Virus record (IMG/VR): IMGVR_UViG_3300029477_000009
Origin: a virus
Direction: 5' to 3' (one strand)
DNA: 41,522 bases
In this document: positions 3,040-33,002 of the stretch, piece by piece
How positions within the stretch are numbered: position 1 is the stretch's first letter
Layout of the letters: every line of letters begins with the position of its first letter
The notes under the pieces: generated by a model
Told to the model about the DNA's origin: nothing
Databases searched by the model: none
What the model saw: the letters and a program-made list of their open reading frames with translations, nothing else
Position numbers and translations under genes: made by a program

Positions 3040-3417
3040 ATGGAACTTACCGTAGACGGCAAGAAGTACAACGTCCTTGTTACAAGCCTTACCCGTAAAT
3101 TTCAGGTGCTTGACGGCAAGAACGCAGAGCGAACGCTCAGCGGCGCAATGATTCGCGACATTATCGGTACGTTTTACAACTACGAGATTACGATTCTTCC
3201 CGCAGTTGGCAAGTACGGCGACTACGATGCGCTGTACGAGGTTCTGAGTGCACCGCAGGACAGTCACAGAATTGTTGTTCCGTATGCACAGAGCACGCTT
3301 ACGTTTAACGCATATGTTACTGCTGGACAAGACAATCTCGTTCGCAAGAAACCCGGAGAAGCATACTGGACGGGGCTTTCCGTTCAGTTTATCGCAATGG
3401 CACCGCAAAGGACGTGA
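3040..3417 (+). CDS. Small distal-tail (Dit-like) protein
   Basis: 125 aa that starts 1 nt after the tape measure stop, which is the canonical Dit position. Confidence 0.55.
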   Translation: MELTVDGKKYNVLVTSLTRKFQVLDGKNAERTLSGAMIRDIIGTFYNYEITILPAVGKYGDYDALYEVLSAPQDSHRIVVPYAQSTLTFNAYVTAGQDNLVRKKPGEAYWTGLSVQFIAMAPQRT

Positions 3418-3420
3418 CAC

Positions 3421-5559
3421 ATGGGAACAAATAAAATTCTTTATCTGGATAAGGTGTTCACGGCAACAGATGTAAAGTCGGGGAATATGTATCAAGCACG
3501 TTCCCCGATTGCTGCATCACAGGAAATTGATACTTTTAGTTTCGATGTATACAGTGAAAACACCACATTAACCGAATTTATCCGCAACACGCCATTGACG
3601 TATTTCCATAATGATGAACAAATGGGAATCTACTATGTGCAGAAAATCAGTCGAAAGTCCATCAACACCTATCATTTCGCCTGTACTTCGACCGTTGGCC
3701 TGCTGGATGAAACCTACCACGACGGCGGTATCTATACCGGCGAAACCGTGCGCGAAGTTTGTACGGACATTTGCTCACCGCTGACCTGCTATGTTAAGTC
3801 CAACATTGCCAACATCAAACTTTACGGTTGGCTGCCTATTGCAACTCGGCGCGAAAACCTTGCGCAAGTGCTGTTTGCTGTCGGCGCAACGCTGAAAGTA
3901 GACTACAATGGTGCAATCCGTATCGAGGGCTTGTGGGACGGACAGTCGAGCGAAATCACCGCAAGCGAAATGTACGCGGGCGGCTCGGTGGAGTATGCAA
4001 CGCCTGTTACTGAGGTAATCGTAACCGAACACGCCTATTCGCAGAGCGCAACGGAAACGACAGAGCTTTTCAAGGGCACAACGTCGGCAGGCGACAAAAT
4101 CACCTTCGACGAACCGTGCTATGACCTCGCGGCATCTGGCTTTTCCATTCTTGCAAGCGGTGCAAATTGGGCAACGGTTTCGGCAGGTTCGGGCGCGCTG
4201 ACGGGCAAGAAGTACACGCACGTTACCCGGCAGGTAATGCAGCAGATTAAACCGAAAACACGCGAACTCGTTACGCAGTCCGACAATACGGTTAAGGTAG
4301 AGAACGCAACGCTCGTATCTCTCGTAAATGCAACGGCAGTCGCAGAACGCCTCGCTGAGTATTACAGCCACAACGAACGTATCAATTACAAAATCGCGGT
4401 TAAACGTGAAACCCCCGGTGATGTAGTGAAGATTGCGCATCCTTACGGCGGTACAGTCTCCGGCTGCATTGAAAGCGCGGATATCACGGTATCCGGCAAA
4501 CTTGCAGCAGAGGAAAGCGTGCTGATTGATTATTTCCCGCCGGATATTGGTGTGCAGGAATATTACGACACGGTAGAAGTCCTGACGCAGAACGGCACTT
4601 GGACTGTGCCGGAAAACGTGACCTCTGCGCGAATTGTGCTGATTGGCGGAGGGTCTGGCGGTTCAAGTGGATGTGAGGGCGAAGATGGCAAGAGTGTGCA
4701 CGGCGGCGGCGCAGGCGGCAAAGGCGGCGTGGCAGGCGCAGGTGGCGCGGGCGGAAAGGTTTACAGCGTTGAAATGGATGTTACGCCCGGAGCGAATTAC
4801 GCAGTGCAAATTGGTGCAGGCGGCAAAGGTGGCGTATATTCCGCAGACGGCAGCGTAGCCGGTACGTCTGGCGTGCAAACAAAGTTCGGCTCGCTATCCT
4901 CTGAAAACGGCTCATCTTCCGATATTGGTTTTGCAGACCCAGTCAATAACCAGTTTTACGCCCAAGCCGGAGACGATGGCATTAAGGGCGGAGATGGAGG
5001 CAACGGCGGCGAAGCAAACTATACAAGCGATGATAGCAAGGTTCGCGCAGGCAAAGACGGAGGAAACGCCCTCGGCTACGCAGGCGGCAAGGGTGCAAGC
5101 GGTAGCGCGGCTAAATACGACGGTCAGATTGGCGTTTCTGGCGGTGGCGGTGGCGGCGGCGCCGCTATGGGCAACGCGGGAGGAGATGGCAATACCGGAC
5201 GCTTGGAATGGACGAATTTCTCCCTTCCCGAGCATACCGGTCAAGGATGGCTCGCAAAAGGCGGCGCAGGCGGCTCTGGCGGTAACGCAACTATCATTCC
5301 GAACACGCCTACCATGCTCGGCAGTGGCGGCGGTGGCGGTCACGGAGGCGGCGGCGGAGGCGGCGGCGGATTGACGCAAGCTGTGTCCACGTGGAGCCAT
5401 TCCGGCGGCAGCGGTGGTTCCGGCTCTTCCGGCGGCGACGGTGCGCCCGGCTGCGTGCTCATCTATTACCGTGTATACCGTGCAAGCTCTTCCGGACGGT
5501 TTGTCACTCGTGACGGCAAAGGCTTTAATGAGAAATTCACAAGAAAGGTTGTGGTTTAA
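3421..5559 (+). CDS. Tail tip / tail-associated protein with extreme glycine-rich C-terminal domain
   Basis: 712 aa in the Tal position. The C-terminal ~280 aa carries GGGSGGSSG, GGGAGGKGGVAGAGGAGG, GGGGGGAAMGNAGGDGN and GGGGGHGGGGGGGGG runs. Confidence 0.7.
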   Translation: MGTNKILYLDKVFTATDVKSGNMYQARSPIAASQEIDTFSFDVYSENTTLTEFIRNTPLTYFHNDEQMGIYYVQKISRKSINTYHFACTSTVGLLDETYHDGGIYTGETVREVCTDICSPLTCYVKSNIANIKLYGWLPIATRRENLAQVLFAVGATLKVDYNGAIRIEGLWDGQSSEITASEMYAGGSVEYATPVTEVIVTEHAYSQSATETTELFKGTTSAGDKITFDEPCYDLAASGFSILASGANWATVSAGSGALTGKKYTHVTRQVMQQIKPKTRELVTQSDNTVKVENATLVSLVNATAVAERLAEYYSHNERINYKIAVKRETPGDVVKIAHPYGGTVSGCIESADITVSGKLAAEESVLIDYFPPDIGVQEYYDTVEVLTQNGTWTVPENVTSARIVLIGGGSGGSSGCEGEDGKSVHGGGAGGKGGVAGAGGAGGKVYSVEMDVTPGANYAVQIGAGGKGGVYSADGSVAGTSGVQTKFGSLSSENGSSSDIGFADPVNNQFYAQAGDDGIKGGDGGNGGEANYTSDDSKVRAGKDGGNALGYAGGKGASGSAAKYDGQIGVSGGGGGGGAAMGNAGGDGNTGRLEWTNFSLPEHTGQGWLAKGGAGGSGGNATIIPNTPTMLGSGGGGGHGGGGGGGGGLTQAVSTWSHSGGSGGSGSSGGDGAPGCVLIYYRVYRASSSGRFVTRDGKGFNEKFTRKVVV

Positions 5560-12234: not shown

Positions 12235-13317
12235 TTATATATGCACCACCTTGCGAGTCTCCTGCGCCTCATAGAAATTCGAAACGCGGGCGGCGGCAGA
12301 GGCGAAAGCCTCGTTGGATAGGTGTGTATAAATATGCGAGGTCATAGCGATGTTTTTGTGACCTAACAGATCTTTGGCGACGTTGATGGGCACGCCCGCC
12401 GACTGTAAGTCGGTGGCGTAAGTATGTCGCAGACAGTAGGGCGTTAGGTCATCGGCGACGACTGACGTTTCCGGGATAATCGCGCCACGGAACGTCCGCG
12501 CTCCCATGTCAATATCAACCCTTTTCTTGAAGTTGCACCACATTTGCCGCATAGAGGTTTTTGTGTGCGGCTTGCCGGTGGTCGGCTGGGTGAATATATA
12601 ACCTGTACCGCCGGTCAGCAGGGGGCGCAAAGCCGGATGCAGGGGAACGGCTCTGTCTCCGTAGTCCGTCTTGGATGAGTGCAGGATTATCTTTTCTTCG
12701 TTTAAGCGAACATCTGCCCACAGAGCTTTTCGCGTTTCGTCCGGTCTTGCACCGGTGTACAACATGAACAGCACCCATAGCCCGGCGCGGTGCGTTTCCG
12801 CAACATGCAGGATATGCCTGCGCTCGTCGGCCGTGATTGCCCTGTGCGTGCCGCTTGTGGTCTCCGGCATAACGATACCCTCGGTAGGGTCATAGGCAAT
12901 CACGCGGTCGATACGCGCCTGTCTGAACGCGCTGCGGATGAGGTTGCGCAGCTTGCACGCCAGAGACGCGGAACGGCCGGATACGCTGTTAAGAATGTGC
13001 TGTAAGTCAATCGGTTTTACGTCTTTGAGCCGGAACGAGCCGATGGGCGGAGAAATGTAGTTTTTTACGTAGCTTTGCAGGTCAGCATAGGTGTTCGGCT
13101 GCACCTTCGGGAGCTTGTAGGCGGCGAGATAGTCCGCAAACCACTTGTCTACTGTGGTGTTCTCGTTGGTGATGTCGATGCCGTGTTCCAGGCGGCGTTT
13201 CTTTTCATCCACTTTACGCCAGAGAGCTCGCTCGGTTTTGGCGCGGACGGAATAACGCTTGCCCTGAAAAGTGAATGTCTCGCGGAAATATCCGTCTGAT
13301 GTGTTCGCTTTTCTCAT
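12235..13317 (-). CDS. int: Tyrosine integrase
   Basis: 360 aa with a C-terminal catalytic pattern: TGARPDE (R), LRHTYATDL (HxxR), LLGH and IYTH (Y). Confidence 0.95.
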   Translation of the reverse strand: MRKANTSDGYFRETFTFQGKRYSVRAKTERALWRKVDEKKRRLEHGIDITNENTTVDKWFADYLAAYKLPKVQPNTYADLQSYVKNYISPPIGSFRLKDVKPIDLQHILNSVSGRSASLACKLRNLIRSAFRQARIDRVIAYDPTEGIVMPETTSGTHRAITADERRHILHVAETHRAGLWVLFMLYTGARPDETRKALWADVRLNEEKIILHSSKTDYGDRAVPLHPALRPLLTGGTGYIFTQPTTGKPHTKTSMRQMWCNFKKRVDIDMGARTFRGAIIPETSVVADDLTPYCLRHTYATDLQSAGVPINVAKDLLGHKNIAMTSHIYTHLSNEAFASAAARVSNFYEAQETRKVVHI

Positions 13318-13951: not shown

Positions 13952-14443
13952 TTATTTCTTATATTTCGGATTTCCCAGCATGATTTCAAGGAAATCCAAT
14001 GCTTTTTCCTGCCCGTCCTCGGTAAGCTGATTGAATATTGTGGTCAGCCGAGATTGACGGGCGATTTTTTGTGTCTCATCATACTGCGCGAGATCGTGCA
14101 GCATGAATTCGATTGAGTGTTGCATACGCTCTAAGCCTTTTAGATTGGCTTCGAGCCATGCCTGTTTTTCCTGCTCAGTGGCTTGACCAGCTGCTACTTT
14201 CTGCTGTAGCTCCACTATTTCCGGCGCACTGTTTACACGGATTGAAGCATCAGGGCTTAACTCGTTTACGCTTACGCCAAGCGCATTTGCCAGTTTCACA
14301 ATGTTTTCGTGCGAAAGCCGTTTGCTATCTCTTTTTACAATCGAATATAGTGTTGTATACGGCATTTCTGCGCGTTCTGAAAGTGCACGAAGTGAAATCC
14401 CTTGCGATTTTGCAACTTTTTCTATTCTTTCTCCAATAGTCAT
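13952..14443 (-). CDS. CI-like repressor (XRE HTH plus C-terminal dimerisation region)
   Basis: Starts at MTIGERIEKVAKSQGISLRALSERAEMPYTTLYSIV, an HTH_3 pattern. It is divergent from the cro-like gene. Confidence 0.85.
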   Translation of the reverse strand: MTIGERIEKVAKSQGISLRALSERAEMPYTTLYSIVKRDSKRLSHENIVKLANALGVSVNELSPDASIRVNSAPEIVELQQKVAAGQATEQEKQAWLEANLKGLERMQHSIEFMLHDLAQYDETQKIARQSRLTTIFNQLTEDGQEKALDFLEIMLGNPKYKK

Positions 14444-14478
14444 ATTATCACCTTTATAACGCATTGCGCATAAAATTG

Positions 14479-14507
14479 TTGACAATGAAATGCTTTGCGT
14501 ATATAAT
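14479..14507 (+). promoter_or_regulatory. Consensus sigma-70 early promoter (TTGACA-17-TATAAT) with flanking operator-like CGCATTGCG / CGCAATGCG motifs
   Basis: TTGACA at 14479-84, a 17-nt spacer and TATAAT at 14502-07. CGCATTGCG at 14460-68 and its inverse CGCAATGCG at 14523-31. Confidence 0.75.
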
Positions 14508-14549
14508 TCAATCACAGAATATCGCAATGCGAATAAGAAAGGAGACTAT

Positions 14550-30085: not shown

Positions 30086-30326
30086 AAATACAGCGACAAG
30101 GTCCGGCGTTACTTATTATGGTGATACGCCGTGCCGGAACTGCGCTTACTGGCGGACGCTCGGCAACTATAAAAATCTGAAGCTGTGGGCGTGCCACTAC
30201 GCATTAGTAAACCGGCATTCGAGGGGATGCGAGCCGGGCGAAAGGTGCACAAAAAGAACAGAAAGCTACCGCAGACGGATAGCTTTCAAGCACGATGGAA
30301 GCACCGAGGAGATTACAAGTCGATGA
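30078..30326 (+). CDS. Cys-rich small protein
   Basis: CRNCAYW..WACHY..RGCEPGERC; 82 aa. Confidence 0.45.
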   Translation: MTKNTATRSGVTYYGDTPCRNCAYWRTLGNYKNLKLWACHYALVNRHSRGCEPGERCTKRTESYRRRIAFKHDGSTEEITSR

Positions 30327-30736
30327 CAGCGAAAGAATGGCTAATGCGCGGGCGCGCACTGGAAAAGACGATTACAGCCTTGCAGGAGGCGCGGAAACGC
30401 GCCTATGCACGGGCAACGGGCGCAACCGCGCCGGTAAGGGACACGCCGGGCGGAAAAGGGAGCACGGGGAACAAGGCAGACCCCTACATCGAACTGGGCG
30501 AGAAGATCGCAGAGAAGGAAAACGAGCTTGCGGAGATATACGGCGAGATTGTGCGCGTGCTGGGCGAAATGCGGGATAATGAGCTGCAAACGCTCCTGCT
30601 TGAACGTTACGTGAACGGCGCAACATGGGCACAGGCGGCGCGGCGGCTGCATTACAGCGAGGCGCACGTGAAGGGCTACATGCACAGAATGGCACTGAAT
30701 GCTGTGGATAAGTTAATACCCCACAATACGCAATAA
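30323..30736 (+). CDS. Sigma-like late gene activator (DUF1492/ArpU/RinA-type)
   Basis: Starts at the internal ATG MTAKEWLMRG. ELQTLLLERYVNGATWAQAARRLHYSEAHVKGYMHRMAL is a sigma r4-like HTH. It is the last gene before the packaging region. Confidence 0.65.
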   Translation: MTAKEWLMRGRALEKTITALQEARKRAYARATGATAPVRDTPGGKGSTGNKADPYIELGEKIAEKENELAEIYGEIVRVLGEMRDNELQTLLLERYVNGATWAQAARRLHYSEAHVKGYMHRMALNAVDKLIPHNTQ

Positions 30737-31468
30737 TGTGATATACTGATATCGTGGAAGAGCTCCAAGGGAGCAAAACCACGGCATTCACGGGTTGATA
30801 AATTCCGGTTTTATGTCCTCCTAATTCTCTCCCCTGCTTCGGCGGGGACACGCTCCAAAGGCTGCACGAGGCCGGCGGGGCTCACACTTCCTTTCGCCCA
30901 AGGCATTCCCTAATGAGGCGGGAAACCGTCTCAGCCTGTCCGCCGCGTCCGCACGAGGGCGCGCGGGCTCTTTGACTCTCGGGAATACAGTTCAAGGAAA
31001 CGCGGCAGAGATGCCGCACATGCTCCAAAGCCTGCATGAGGGCGGCGGGGCAAAAAAAGACAGCCGGACAGGCTGCCCATAATCTGACGGCGTGGAAAGA
31101 CACGCAACGGCGCAGCTTACGGAACGGCTGCCTCCTATTCTGACAGCCCGGAAAGACGGACACCAGCAAGGCAAGGCTATGCTTGACAGCCCGGAAAGAC
31201 GGGCAGTTTCCGAACTCCTGCCGGGGCTGCTGCAACAGCTCGGCGGGCGCGGTACGCTTGCAGGCGATGCCGCCGGGGTCGCGCCCCGCTGTAACCAGTC
31301 AGCCGGAAAACAAACCGATAGTAATTGTGACACGCCGGAGAGCGACGGCGCACAGCCCAGAACGAGAGGGCGGCGGATGCACGCCAACGGATCGCGAGAG
31401 CCGAAAAGCTGCATACATGCGGATAAAAAACAAGATCAACAAAAGAGAGGTGAAACACTCCTTCTCTT
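30737..31468 (+). ncRNA. Candidate large structured ncRNA (ORF-free, hairpin-dense tract)
   Basis: No ORF here has an RBS. The tract contains duplicated hairpin modules at 30831-80 and 31002-50, UUCG/GAGA tetraloops on the + strand, and three GAAAGA-loop hairpins with compensatory changes. Confidence 0.45.
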
Positions 31469-31478
31469 ATACATTCCG

Positions 31479-31487
31479 TGGTATATT
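31479..31487 (+). promoter_or_regulatory. Extended -10 promoter TGgTATATT
   Basis: TG-n-TATATT at 31479-87. The -35 region is poor. Confidence 0.4.
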
Positions 31488-31493
31488 GTCTTA

Positions 31494-31690
31494 TTTTGTA
31501 GCATGCCCGCATGAAAGAAGCTGGGAGACCATCGGTGAAAGCCCGACGTTCGCGCGGCGACAAGCGCACATACCCCGAAAGGGGTATACATGCAGCCGAA
31601 AGTTGATACGCGGTGCAATCCCGCGTGGCTGCACCTCCAATTGTCATAAGTAAAAGCACCTCCCCGGGATGGCTTCGGGAAGGTGCTTTT
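31494..31690 (+). ncRNA. Candidate ~200-nt structured RNA ending at a strong terminator
   Basis: ATACCCC-GAAA-GGGGTAT at 31570-87. Nested GCAGCC..CGCGG-tgcaatc-CCGCG..GGCTGC at 31592-632. Terminator at 31652-90. Confidence 0.45.
31652..31690. terminator. Bidirectional rho-independent terminator
   Basis: AAAAGCACCTCCCCG-ggatggctt-CGGGAAGGTGCTTTT. It has an A-run upstream and a T-run downstream, and lies between the + RNA and the - gene 31715-31876. Confidence 0.8.
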
Positions 31691-31719
31691 GCTTAGATGT
31701 TGCTTAGATGTTGCTTAGC
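31690..31719. repeat. 11-bp tandem repeat TGCTTAGATGT x2.7
   Basis: tgcttagatgt tgcttagatgt tgcttagc. It contains the stop codon of the minus-strand gene. Confidence 0.85.
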
Positions 31720-31876
31720 GGTTATCATAAGCGCATAGAGCCTCGCACAGCTCGCGCGTCGGGCACTGAGAGCAGTCGCACTCCGAAATGATAACGTTTT
31801 CGCACAGTGCGCGAGGATCGGCCATAAAAACGGCCTCGGCTGCTCGGTAGTCCTCAGGGGTAATGATGTTATACAT
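31715..31876 (-). CDS. Small Cys-rich protein (53 aa), the only minus-strand gene in the late half
   Basis: RBS ggaggcgtaaccc lies before the ATG. MYNIITPEDYRAAEAVFMADPRALCENVIISECDCSQCPTRELCEALCAYDNR. Confidence 0.5.
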   Translation of the reverse strand: MYNIITPEDYRAAEAVFMADPRALCENVIISECDCSQCPTRELCEALCAYDNR

Positions 31877-32100
31877 GGGTTACGCCTCCAGCCGGTAGAA
31901 CATCGCGCCGTTAAGCAGTGCGAAAGTGATGCAAGCGGTGTTCGCCTGCCGGTAGACTATAAGCTGTTCGGCAGAACGTTCGATGGTATTGATTATCGGT
32001 TCTTGAAGCCGATCAAGGAGAATTTCCCGAGGGATTACGAAAAGATCATCACATGGTTCCCGCTGGCGGAACTGGAGTTATTCAGGAGGGGTGAGCTGTA

Positions 32101-32184
32101 ATGGGATATTGGAACGACAACGAAGTTAAGGAAACAAAAGATGATCACATTGAATTAGAGCAGCTCGAAAGCGAGCCTCGATGA
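32101..32184 (+). CDS. 27-aa ORF, probably the 5' part of 32219-32470
   Basis: RBS caggagggg. MGYWNDNEVKETKDDHIELEQLESEPR. The next frame continues ..LDELGDVEKSFRERMGAENK. Confidence 0.35.
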   Translation: MGYWNDNEVKETKDDHIELEQLESEPR

Positions 32185-32218
32185 GCTGGGAGATGTAGAA
32201 AAGAGTTTCCGTGAGCGC

Positions 32219-32470
32219 ATGGGCGCTGAGAATAAGCGATTTAAGGATATGTGCGACACCGAATATTGGTGCTGCATCTGCTTCACCAGCCGTGCGCAGA
32301 AGGAGGAATTTTTGGAGTCTCTGGAGTTTGACGGCGATTTGAAGTATATCGAAGGAAAAGAATTCGCGCGAGCGGTGAAAAGACCGGTTAAAACCGAGGA
32401 TTTGCGGTTTGCGCGTATCGGCAAAGGCTCAAAAGAATACTTGGGCAGGCTCATAGATGAGCAAAAATGA
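32219..32470 (+). CDS. Hypothetical protein upstream of the terminase
   Basis: 83 aa containing DTEYWCCICFTSRAQKEEFLESL. There is no SD before its ATG, and the frame is open upstream to 32156. Confidence 0.5.
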   Translation: MGAENKRFKDMCDTEYWCCICFTSRAQKEEFLESLEFDGDLKYIEGKEFARAVKRPVKTEDLRFARIGKGSKEYLGRLIDEQK

Positions 32471-32489
32471 CGGAGAGGAGGTGTAAAGC

Positions 32490-32612
32490 GTGGGTGCTGG
32501 TTATGGTAGCGGCAGGCTTGCCAATTTCGGCAGAACCAGAAATCGCCGCCGCAGTGTTGCGGTAGGCCGTCGCGCTGCTGGCGCTCGTGGCGCTCGTTCG
32601 CCCTCGACCTAA
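32490..32612 (+). CDS. Possible 40-aa Arg-rich basic peptide
   Basis: A GTG 8 nt after GGAGAGGAGG. GAGYGSGRLANFGRTRNRRRSVAVGRRAAGARGARSPST. Confidence 0.3.
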   Translation: MGAGYGSGRLANFGRTRNRRRSVAVGRRAAGARGARSPST

Positions 32613-32690
32613 ACACCAAAACTCAAAAGTCCAACGGTTGGGAAATGATTCTCAGCCGGTTTTCTTTTGGGGAAAGAAAGGAGGTAGCGC

Positions 32691-33002
32691 ATGGGACGGA
32701 AAAAGAAAGTGATTGACCTCAAAGCGGTGCAAGAGCTTGCAAGTGAGGGCAATACACAAGAAGAAATTGCAAAGGCTTTGGACTTTTCACGATCGACGTT
32801 CAGTAACCGCGACGATGTAACCGAAGCATACTATAAGGGCGTAGCAGAAATGAAGCTCAGCTTGCGCCATTGGCAGTTTAACGCTGCTCGTGGCGGTAAC
32901 ATCCAGATGCTTATCTGGTTGGGCAAGCAGTACCTCGGACAGCGTGACACAGTAGAGAAAAAAATCGAAAGCGAAGGCGTGAAGGTGATTATCGATGTCT
33001 GA
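32691..33002 (+). CDS. terS: Terminase small subunit
   Basis: RBS aaaggagg. The N-terminal HTH is NTQEEIAKALDFSRSTF, followed by IWLGKQYLGQRD. It lies directly before terL. Confidence 0.75.
   Translation: MGRKKKVIDLKAVQELASEGNTQEEIAKALDFSRSTFSNRDDVTEAYYKGVAEMKLSLRHWQFNAARGGNIQMLIWLGKQYLGQRDTVEKKIESEGVKVIIDV

Follow-up and report, generated by a model that had tools for sequence, protein, structure and literature searches.

The window analysed here, IMG/VR virus record IMGVR_UViG_3300029477_000009, is 41,522 nt of a temperate siphovirus-type genome from the human gut. It contains a tract that lies between the gene for a 136-aa regulator (30326-30736; weakly similar to sigma-70 region 4 and matched to 'transcriptional regulator' in PHROG) and the genes for the small terminase (terS, 32691), the large terminase (terL, 32995) and an SPP1-type portal (34230). 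The tract is a + strand non-coding RNA gene of ~950 nt, at about 30753-31700, bounded by an extended -10 promoter-like motif (30737-47) and an intrinsic terminator (31647-95). The original prediction had proposed a large structured non-coding RNA (ncRNA) here and that reading is supported, but the end that it gave, about 31468, is wrong because the conserved 3' domain runs on to the terminator at 31647-31695, which is present there across lineages. The true 3' end, the link to tRNAs, the link to the Rfam motif DUF3800-VIII and the modular, cassette-like build had all been overlooked, and the GC-richness that was claimed for the tract is marginal (0.56-0.58 versus roughly 0.51-0.56 in neighbouring windows). 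Sequence comparison shows a unit that does not code for protein, keeps its structured parts in a conserved order and has a promoter-like motif at one end and a terminator at the other.

Relative loci, each labelled L plus a number (e.g. L042), were collected with a 27-nt module pattern, which matched 21 stretches of viral-contig DNA, and with the regulator protein, which returned 26 loci (21 at 98-100% identity and five at 29-44%). Homologous tracts are present in more than 50 human-gut phage and metagenome contigs, including lineages whose regulator protein is 42-44% identical, and the substitutions in them, compensatory or by way of G·U, leave the proposed stems paired. The order of the parts is conserved in five lineages: an extended -10 element, a 5' nested hairpin, a CCUCC linker, one to four units made up of a variable hairpin, AYAY and a YGCAYGAG-loop hairpin, optional GAAAGA hairpins or exchangeable cassettes, a GNRA hairpin, a tRNA or acceptor/T-arm minihelix and, finally, an intrinsic terminator. 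Across lineages the tract ranges from ~270 to 1100 nt and holds 1 to 4 module copies, the compact ~270-nt version being that of L044, and within the close family 30737-31162 and 31488-31700 are conserved. Two genomic contexts were found. The tract lies between the regulator gene and the terminase genes in the window family, L042/L053, L043, L090/L051 and L044; in L095 the modules are also ahead of the terminase genes, but the upstream gene differs (helix-turn-helix type). Elsewhere, a single DUF3800-VIII-plus-module unit occupies an intergenic region of the tail operon and ends a few bases before a ribosome-binding site (RBS), as in L058/L087, L071/L072/L091 and L107/L108/L113. A minus-strand toxin/antitoxin-like gene pair is found between the first and second modules of L042 (6948-7834; also in the L053 lineage), where it splits the tract.

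That the tract holds no credible open reading frame (ORF) was borne out. The 117-160-aa ORFs within it overlap each other on both strands and are without Pfam, PHROG or tblastn matches; three were compared with PHROGs, and two of the long ones were searched by tblastn against 50,697 phage records. No protein homolog spanning the tract was found by tblastn, PHROG or Pfam searches. Relatives carry indels that are not multiples of three: close relatives differ from the window tract by 1- and 2-nt indels, and L038, which has the same middle cassette as the window, has 1-, 2- and 40-nt indels that break both long + strand frames. A protein-coding reading is therefore rejected.

Module A (30830-30883, + strand) is made up of a UUCG hairpin, ACAC and GCUCC-AAA-GGC-UGCACGAG-GCC-GGC-GGGGC, while module C (31002-31053, + strand) has a GAGA hairpin, ACAU and GCUCC-AAA-GCC-UGCAUGAG-GGC-GGC-GGGGC. 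The module had been described as present twice, and a covariance model indeed finds two strong matches in the 41.5-kb window, both on the + strand and in the tract, at 30848-30883 (52.6 bits, E 1.9e-11) and 31018-31053 (55.5 bits, E 3.4e-12), and a repeat finder returned the same pair as 34 nt at 88% identity. A weak third local match (30947-61) falls in a degenerate module B (30938-30968, + strand) with the loop CGCACGAG. Between modules A and C, the RNAalifold consensus of 19 relatives has a multi-branch domain (30888-30999, + strand) that is closed by UUCCUU/AAGGAA and contains a GAAA-loop hairpin; its variable pairs remain paired, e.g. GU:9/GC:5/AU:5. Pairing in the modules themselves, which underlies module A together with the model match, is retained through extensive change. 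Among 28 distinct module copies 96% of cells are paired, double changes occupy 11 cells versus 3.5 expected, and the observed covariation was reached by no shuffle. The flip of the middle pair between the two copies (GGC/GCC versus GCC/GGC) is real and recurs across lineages as CG:18 versus GC:9. Variants retain the 7-bp outer stem (GCUCCGC/GCGGGGC, GUUCUGC/GCAGAGC), some close relatives have a fourth module (GCUCGC...GYGAGC), and the loop generalises to YGCNNGAG. A 31-nt stretch of module C is 93.5% identical in L042, despite a regulator protein that is 44% identical. The bare 9-mer YGCAYGAGG, by comparison, has 5 matches in the window versus 1.9 expected, which is not significant alone. The module copies all share the orientation of the late genes, and the many U·G pairs of the outer stem would be A·C mismatches if read from the other strand. 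The + strand orientation originally proposed is upheld accordingly, as G·U intermediates arise solely in the + strand reading and folding energy also favours it.

The 5' end is marked by the extended -10 promoter-like site TGTGATATACT (TGTG-A-TATACT; 30737-30747, + strand), which overlaps the regulator's stop codon. In 19/19 distinct relatives, including the TGTGATACAAT block variant, the TG and TAnnnT of the site are conserved, and TGTGnTAnnAT also directly follows the regulator gene in distant lineages (L043, TGTGCTATAAT; L044, TGTGCTATTAT). A hexamer-pair scan at the site returned no -35/-10 pair. A palindrome, GATAT(N4)ATATC (30737-30759), overlaps the -10 element; three relatives have a block change to GATAC(N4)GTATC in which the palindrome is retained, and the GATAT immediately after the -10 hexamer is retained in L090 and L044. 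The hairpins and repeats previously listed for the tract were all found where they had been placed, among them the 5' nested hairpin CGUGG-AAGA-GCUCC-AAG-GGAGC-AAAA-CCACG (30753-30783, + strand). This hairpin does not vary within the close family, and in L090/L051 and L044 its shape is preserved with both stems replaced (UGAG-CAAA-GCCCC-GAA-GGGCU/GGGGU-GAA(A)-CUCA). For the 5' domain as a whole, the RNAalifold consensus of the 19 relatives has 111 pairs that are 99.6% paired, versus ~44% when partners are slid, and 13 double-change cells versus 2.4 expected.

An unpaired pyrimidine linker (30812-30829, + strand) containing CCUCC (30817-21) separates the nested hairpin from module A, and its position is shared by four lineages, with the sequences CCUCCUAAUUCU in the window, CCUCCAUUUCUA in L043 and CCUCCUUUCUA in L090 and L044. 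The linker resembles the 3' tail of 16S rRNA, and a search of the phage genome for an extended target of the anti-Shine-Dalgarno (anti-SD) type returned only the site itself. Tracts of CCUCC occur both here (30817-30821) and directly after the minihelix (31634-31638). A minus-strand small ORF starting at the reverse complement of the CCUCC linker (GGAGGAAAACATG there in L090 and L043) was considered and rejected because it is 32 aa in one of these two loci and 13 aa in the other, with no ATG in the window.

After module C and an A-run, a hairpin conserved in relatives, CAGCC-GGACA-GGCUG (31061-31075, + strand), leads into three hairpins of the form UGACRGC-NNG-GAAAGA-CNN-GC (31085-31204, + strand; copies at 31085-105, 31141-161 and 31184-204) with an intervening hairpin at 31109-31131, also on the + strand. 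The three GAAAGA-loop hairpins had been noticed earlier; their pattern count is 3 versus 0.00 expected by chance, and the repeat finder recovered all three units. Across loci the stems change (GCCCG/CGGGC, GCUCG/CGAGC, GCGUG/CACGC, GUGCG/CGUAC and GCGCG/CGCGC, with U·G intermediates as well) around a loop that never varies, and the conserved element YUAUUCUGAC lies upstream. The third copy is absent from L038. What follows is a variable cassette (31205-31442, + strand) common only to L022, L038 and, in part, L036; in most relatives 31163-31488 is swapped for another cassette of ~220 nt. A further hairpin, AAGAGAGG-UGAAACACU-CCUUCUCUU (31443-31468, + strand), was read from sequence and has a related counterpart, AAAGAGAGGUGAAA...CCUUUCCUU, in L043, L042 and L090. 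It pairs a Shine-Dalgarno (SD)-like strand, AAGAGAGGUG, with the anti-SD-like CACUCCUUCUCUU, the latter resembling the 16S rRNA 3' tail.

The 3' domain comprises hairpins at 31491-31590 (+ strand; consensus fold of 15 relatives), including the GNRA hairpin AUACCCC-GAAA-GGGGUAU (31570-87). The third pair of this hairpin is CG:8 versus GC:7, its loop is GAAA or GCAA, and ACCCC-GAAA-GGGGU alternates with ACCGC-GMAA-GCGGU. In all lineages the GNRA hairpin precedes a tRNA or the element that occupies the tRNA slot. In the window this is a tRNA-like minihelix (31591-31639, + strand) with the 7-bp acceptor-like stem UGCAGCC/GGCUGCA, the T-arm-like ACGCGG-UGCAAUC-CCGCGU and the tail CCUCCA. The acceptor-like 3' strand abuts the 6-bp stem with its 7-nt loop, an arrangement that the minimum free energy fold reproduces, and 31591-31633 has the geometry of a minihelix, i.e. 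a 7-bp acceptor stem continuous with a 5-6-bp T-stem and a 7-nt loop. A T-stem pair varies as GU:9/GC:3/AU:3 across relatives, and in L038 the acceptor and T stems are both different yet complementary, with the loop UGCAAGC retained. In other lineages the slot holds a tRNA-Met(CAU) with an encoded CCA, a tRNA-Arg(GCG), a degenerate tRNA or a minihelix; tRNA-Met or tRNA-Arg is at the 3' end of the tract in the L042, L053, L090, L121, L138, L142 and L143 lineages, and L043 has a tRNA-Gly inside the tract. The minihelix of L043 has a canonical UUCGAUU T-loop and matches both ends of the tmRNA model only (21.7 bits, E 1e-5; gathering score 47). No tRNA or tmRNA was called in the window by ARAGORN or by the Rfam tRNA (RF00005) and tmRNA models. 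ARAGORN made 'permuted tmRNA' calls at L036 7239-7954 and L144 5807-6522, which start shortly before the minihelix; these are likely artefacts, probably triggered by the minihelix, as they span the terminator and the variable region behind it.

The intrinsic terminator (31647-31700, + strand) has 20-nt arms, seen as an inverted repeat at 31647-66/31676-95, a 9-nt loop and then UUUUGCUU; it is conserved in relatives with UG/UA variation. It was missed in a simple terminator scan because the loop limit of the scan was 8 nt, and it would be bidirectional, since the A-run on its 5' side is a U-run on the minus strand. At the equivalent place, L038, L043, L042, L090 and L044 each have a terminator, but its sequence is unrelated. 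An 11-nt tandem repeat, TTGCTTAGATG (31689-31723), begins within the terminator U-tract and is followed by TATCAT; close relatives have from 2 copies to 5 or more, some relatives lack it, and it could be a regulator-binding array, a late promoter or pac-related.

Thermodynamic evidence for the fold is modest. The whole tract has a folding z-score of -4.1 on the + strand versus -0.9 on the minus strand from 20 shuffles only, and with 200 shuffles the 5' 300 nt score -2.4 and the 3' domain -1.6. Sliding-window scores with 15 shuffles were too noisy and were left unused; an outlier of -7.3 at 3377-3616 fell to -2.4 with 200 shuffles. The case therefore rests on the comparative evidence.

A comparison with all 4227 Rfam 15 models gave no match in the window at the gathering score and, under permissive filters, none of relevance at E<=10 in 30500-32800; GOLLD, ROOL, HEARO, group I/II introns, CRISPR-DR, tRNA and tmRNA were all without a match in the window, and blastn of the tract against INPHARED phages also returned none. 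The RNA family is uncatalogued in that the window has no Rfam 15 match, the candidate lists of Weinberg et al. 2017 and Fremin et al. 2023 being outside the comparison. Weinberg et al. reported eleven motifs associated with DUF3800, their function unknown and several of them followed by a terminator (PMC5737381), and the predictions that Fremin et al. made for IMG/VR comprise structured RNA candidates in the thousands (PMC10690425). One of these DUF3800-associated motifs, DUF3800-VIII (RF03075, 64 nt), was found above its gathering score (47-58 bits) in L043, L051, L058, L071, L087, L090, L091, L129 and L136. In all eight hit loci that were searched with, and matched by, the UGCAYGAG model, it ends directly 5' of the module; for L071 the adjacency was read from sequence and pattern position. 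After the DUF3800-VIII-like copies that a pattern scan located in L110, L112 and L114, a different sequence follows. DUF3800-VIII fills the slot that is held by a small tetraloop hairpin in the window, with phage context and strand in common, but the Rfam entry is 64 nt and the unit described here is an RNA of 270-1100 nt with defined 5' and 3' ends. The window itself has no DUF3800-VIII match even at E<=10 (the 40.2-bit threshold was not reached). DUF3800 proteins are described as RNase H-like and tied to mobile elements and defence systems (PMC13594972); none is present among the 30 window proteins, part of the ORFs only, that were scanned against Pfam.

The tract is an expanded member of a modular RNA family carried by temperate human-gut Clostridia phages. 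The reading favoured here, for and against which the balance is about even, is that it acts as a self-contained, tRNA-tailed, multivalent binding platform. The RNA would be made at the head of the late/packaging region, starting near 30753 from the extended -10 promoter; as this promoter has no -35 element, it may depend on an activator, for which the sigma-region-4-like regulator encoded next to it is a plausible candidate. A cut at the minihelix by RNase P, perhaps also by RNase Z, would remove the terminator and part the RNA from downstream read-through, and the 5' hairpin and dense structure may stabilise the RNA body. The body would display invariant loops (UGCAYGAG x3, GAAAGA x3) and single-stranded CCUCC tracts as a putative multivalent platform to which RNA polymerase, the ribosome or a protein of phage or host could bind. 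Precedents exist for tRNA-like 3' elements that serve RNase P processing, namely MALAT1-mascRNA, the tRNA-like domain of tmRNA and the stable RNAs of T4 that are co-transcribed with tRNAs. As in MALAT1-mascRNA and the tmRNA domain, an acceptor stem is stacked on a T-arm at the 3' end of a long non-coding RNA, but unlike a tRNA or the tmRNA domain the minihelix has no D or anticodon arm, tag reading frame or encoded CCA. The single unit upstream of tail-gene RBSs in other phages fits a sponge-and-operator arrangement, with many sites on the RNA and single sites on mRNAs. The CsrB/RsmZ sponges are similar in being terminator-ended ncRNAs with several hairpins and one invariant loop motif, and in the occurrence of a single hairpin near an mRNA RBS, though here in other phages and not in this one; the loop motif, however, is unrelated to GGA.

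Several points weigh against the platform. The z-scores of the sub-domains are modest, and 84 of the 111 predicted 5'-domain pairs are invariant in the close family, the structure being derived from those same sequences. The T-loop of the minihelix is non-canonical (UGCAAUC), there is no CCA in register and the tRNA and tmRNA models are silent. Cassettes are exchanged among relatives and the L042 tract is split by the minus-strand gene pair, so the parts may act independently rather than as one RNA. Furthermore, in the L042 and L090 lineages the terminator abuts the terS RBS so closely that a promoter would not fit between them, which points to a role as a cis-acting leader. Promoter, processing and stability are alike predicted from sequence, and the binding partner of the displayed loops is putative.

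The main rival explanation, possible but rather unlikely, is such a leader: a cis-acting element of the late operon for processive antitermination, similar to lambda nut or HK022 put, whose hairpins would either recruit a factor (the adjacent regulator being one possibility) to RNA polymerase or act on the polymerase themselves, so that it reads through the tract's own terminator and through those further along the packaging/structural operon. Antitermination RNAs include lambda nut (boxA-boxB), HK022 put and Bacillus EAR, the last of which acts inside long operons. The tract shares with them promoter-proximal hairpins, purine-rich loops, variable stems and a place ahead of a terminator beyond which the late genes lie; the regulator gene immediately upstream recalls the lambda Q-pR'-tR' layout, and single modules within the tail operons of other phages recall EAR. 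In Gram-positive phages whose late regulator is of the RinA/ArpU type, the late promoter presumably lies at this position, and the promoter-like site without a -35 element agrees with this. The terminator is 25-30 nt from the terS RBS in the L042, L053, L090, L123, L138 and L142 lineages, and in L043 ~10 nt from the RBS of the next gene, so that terS or the next gene must be transcribed through it. Further + strand terminator-like hairpins with T-runs lie in the late region of the window, at 32635-58 (~30 nt upstream of terS) and 36820-41 (after a 389-aa head gene). The GAAAGA hairpins resemble boxA-boxB in their 5-bp stem, purine loop, conserved upstream linear element and tandem copies, but the loop has six nt instead of five, i.e. 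a hexaloop rather than the GNRA-like pentaloop of lambda nut, the stem of 5 bp covaries and the upstream YUAUUCUGAC differs from the boxA consensus. Known antitermination RNAs are ~30-120 nt long whereas the unit here is 270-1100 nt, making the tract roughly ten times longer than nut, put or EAR, and it has a tRNA-like element ahead of the terminator; a tRNA or minihelix at this point invites an RNase P cut, which would sever the tether on which nut and put RNAs depend. Behind the terminator, the window family has minus-strand morons and what may be a separate promoter (the 11-nt repeats plus TATCAT). No N-like protein turned up, though no search for arginine-rich motif (ARM) peptides was made, and the regulator is a weak sigma region 4 match. 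The platform is preferred over a pure antitermination leader because each lineage has a self-contained unit, because morons in either orientation can follow it and because it far exceeds any known antitermination RNA in size. The two roles are nevertheless compatible and not exclusive.

GOLLD and ROOL are phage- or prophage-encoded RNAs that are large and multi-stem, with tRNAs adjoining them or within them (PMC12286853), and an 'ornate' RNA of this type, with one defined three-dimensional shape, possibly a homo-oligomer, and acting in trans during lytic growth, is an improbable alternative. Its appeal lies in a phage-borne, multi-stem RNA of hundreds of nt with tRNAs beside and within it in sister lineages (the window has the minihelix only), in several GNRA/UUCG loops and in the self-complementary UGCA of the module loop, which could make kissing contacts. 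The resemblance is by analogy only: the GOLLD and ROOL models are unmatched even at E<=10, there are no common motifs, and no long-range covarying pairs were found in the consensus of 19 relatives. A global fold would hardly tolerate lengths of ~270-1100 nt, a compact version, exchange of cassettes, 1-4 modules and one split lineage, and the modular build argues against a single rigid GOLLD-like fold. That the tract is a functionless remnant, made up of degenerate tRNA genes, moron scars and terminators, or in a variant a protein-coding gene overlooked by gene callers, is very unlikely. The 3' element does resemble a degraded tRNA, degenerate tRNAs being the intermediate in a graded series that leads from tRNA to minihelix, the cassette in the middle varies and ORFs of 140-160 aa exist; but a 31-nt stretch of module C is 93.5% identical in L042, where the neighbouring protein is 44% identical, the L038 minihelix has been re-paired and not eroded, part order is kept in five lineages and the ORFs are without homologs and broken in relatives. 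Least probable of all is an element that works as DNA, i.e. repeated binding sites for the small terminase (pac/cos), the late regulator or a replication protein. Its place upstream of terS/terL, its repeats and inverted repeats and the palindrome over the -10 element would suit such a function, yet the stems vary in sequence with pairing retained and loops invariant, and the U·G intermediates would be A·C mismatches on the other strand or in the logic of DNA half-sites. Copies in one orientation only, units in tail-gene intergenic regions and genuine tRNAs belonging to the unit also speak against DNA. Two further candidates were rejected: a type III toxin-antitoxin RNA (ToxI-like, with ~36-nt head-to-tail repeats), since the module copies are 87, 83 and 170 nt apart and not tandem, and a CRISPR repeat or RNA anti-CRISPR mimic, for which there was no CRISPR-DR match at E<=10. 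The region downstream of the tract, a 53-aa minus-strand ORF and gene remnants, had no family match that would indicate a toxin gene.

It is proposed tentatively that the tract is the first example of a new class of large regulatory RNAs in phages, an array of hairpins that is multivalent and tRNA-tailed, is made at the early-to-late switch of gut Clostridia phages and would act by antitermination or by sequestration of a factor or the ribosome. If so, it could provide RNA-based antitermination of late genes, so far undescribed in Firmicutes phages, or its SD-like and anti-SD-like tracts and tRNA mimic could act on translation, and DUF3800-VIII would be one interchangeable cassette of a larger RNA. 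Few large structured phage RNAs are known, their architectures have lately drawn attention, and an unrelated human-gut family with a modular grammar and a graded tRNA-to-minihelix series adds to GOLLD and ROOL. Through this series, maturation of the RNase P type can be tested directly on a long ncRNA of bacteria or phages, and the orphan motif DUF3800-VIII is placed within a larger transcription unit with defined ends. Furthermore, the position at the early/late boundary, before a terminator that late genes must cross in some lineages, provides a concrete hypothesis for late-gene control in Clostridia phages.

Elsewhere in the window, the lysis/lysogeny region has a holin (7230) and an amidase (7808), followed by an integrase (12235-13317, minus strand), a CI-like repressor (13952-14527, minus strand) and an antirepressor (14754), after which the early genes come. 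A 43,204-nt IMG/VR contig is 99.5% identical to the window over the compared region, and a human-gut metagenome contig contains both modules of the window. Among cultured phages the closest terL is that of Blautia phage Montmirail (57% identity), and a scan of host genome contigs gave chance matches only, in high-GC genomes, with the full module in none. The host is probably a human-gut Clostridia or Lachnospiraceae-like bacterium, judging from the sources of the contigs and the terL identity to Montmirail. The equivalent region of Montmirail, and of two fecal phages whose terL is related, holds tRNAs, but the module was not found there. In Montmirail (L103, 1069-4581) a tRNA-Asn and a tRNA-Ile lie amid very short annotated ORFs between an annotated transcriptional regulator and terL, a layout similar to that of the window without the UGCAYGAG module. 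A GP20-b RNA (RF03003, 60.5 bits) is present at L053 5711-5771, ~4.4 kb downstream of the tract in the L042-like lineage, and GP20-b was also noted in L116, L121 and L123; the Rfam search gave no match to it in the window. Between the tract and terS, the window has gained the 53-aa minus-strand ORF (31715-31876), a 32-aa ORF (32003-32101) is what remains of the C-terminal end of a 235-248-aa gene found intact in L023 and L024, and an 83-aa ORF (32219-32470) is a shortened copy of a 121-139-aa ORF of the same two loci, from which it follows that the window lost sequence here.

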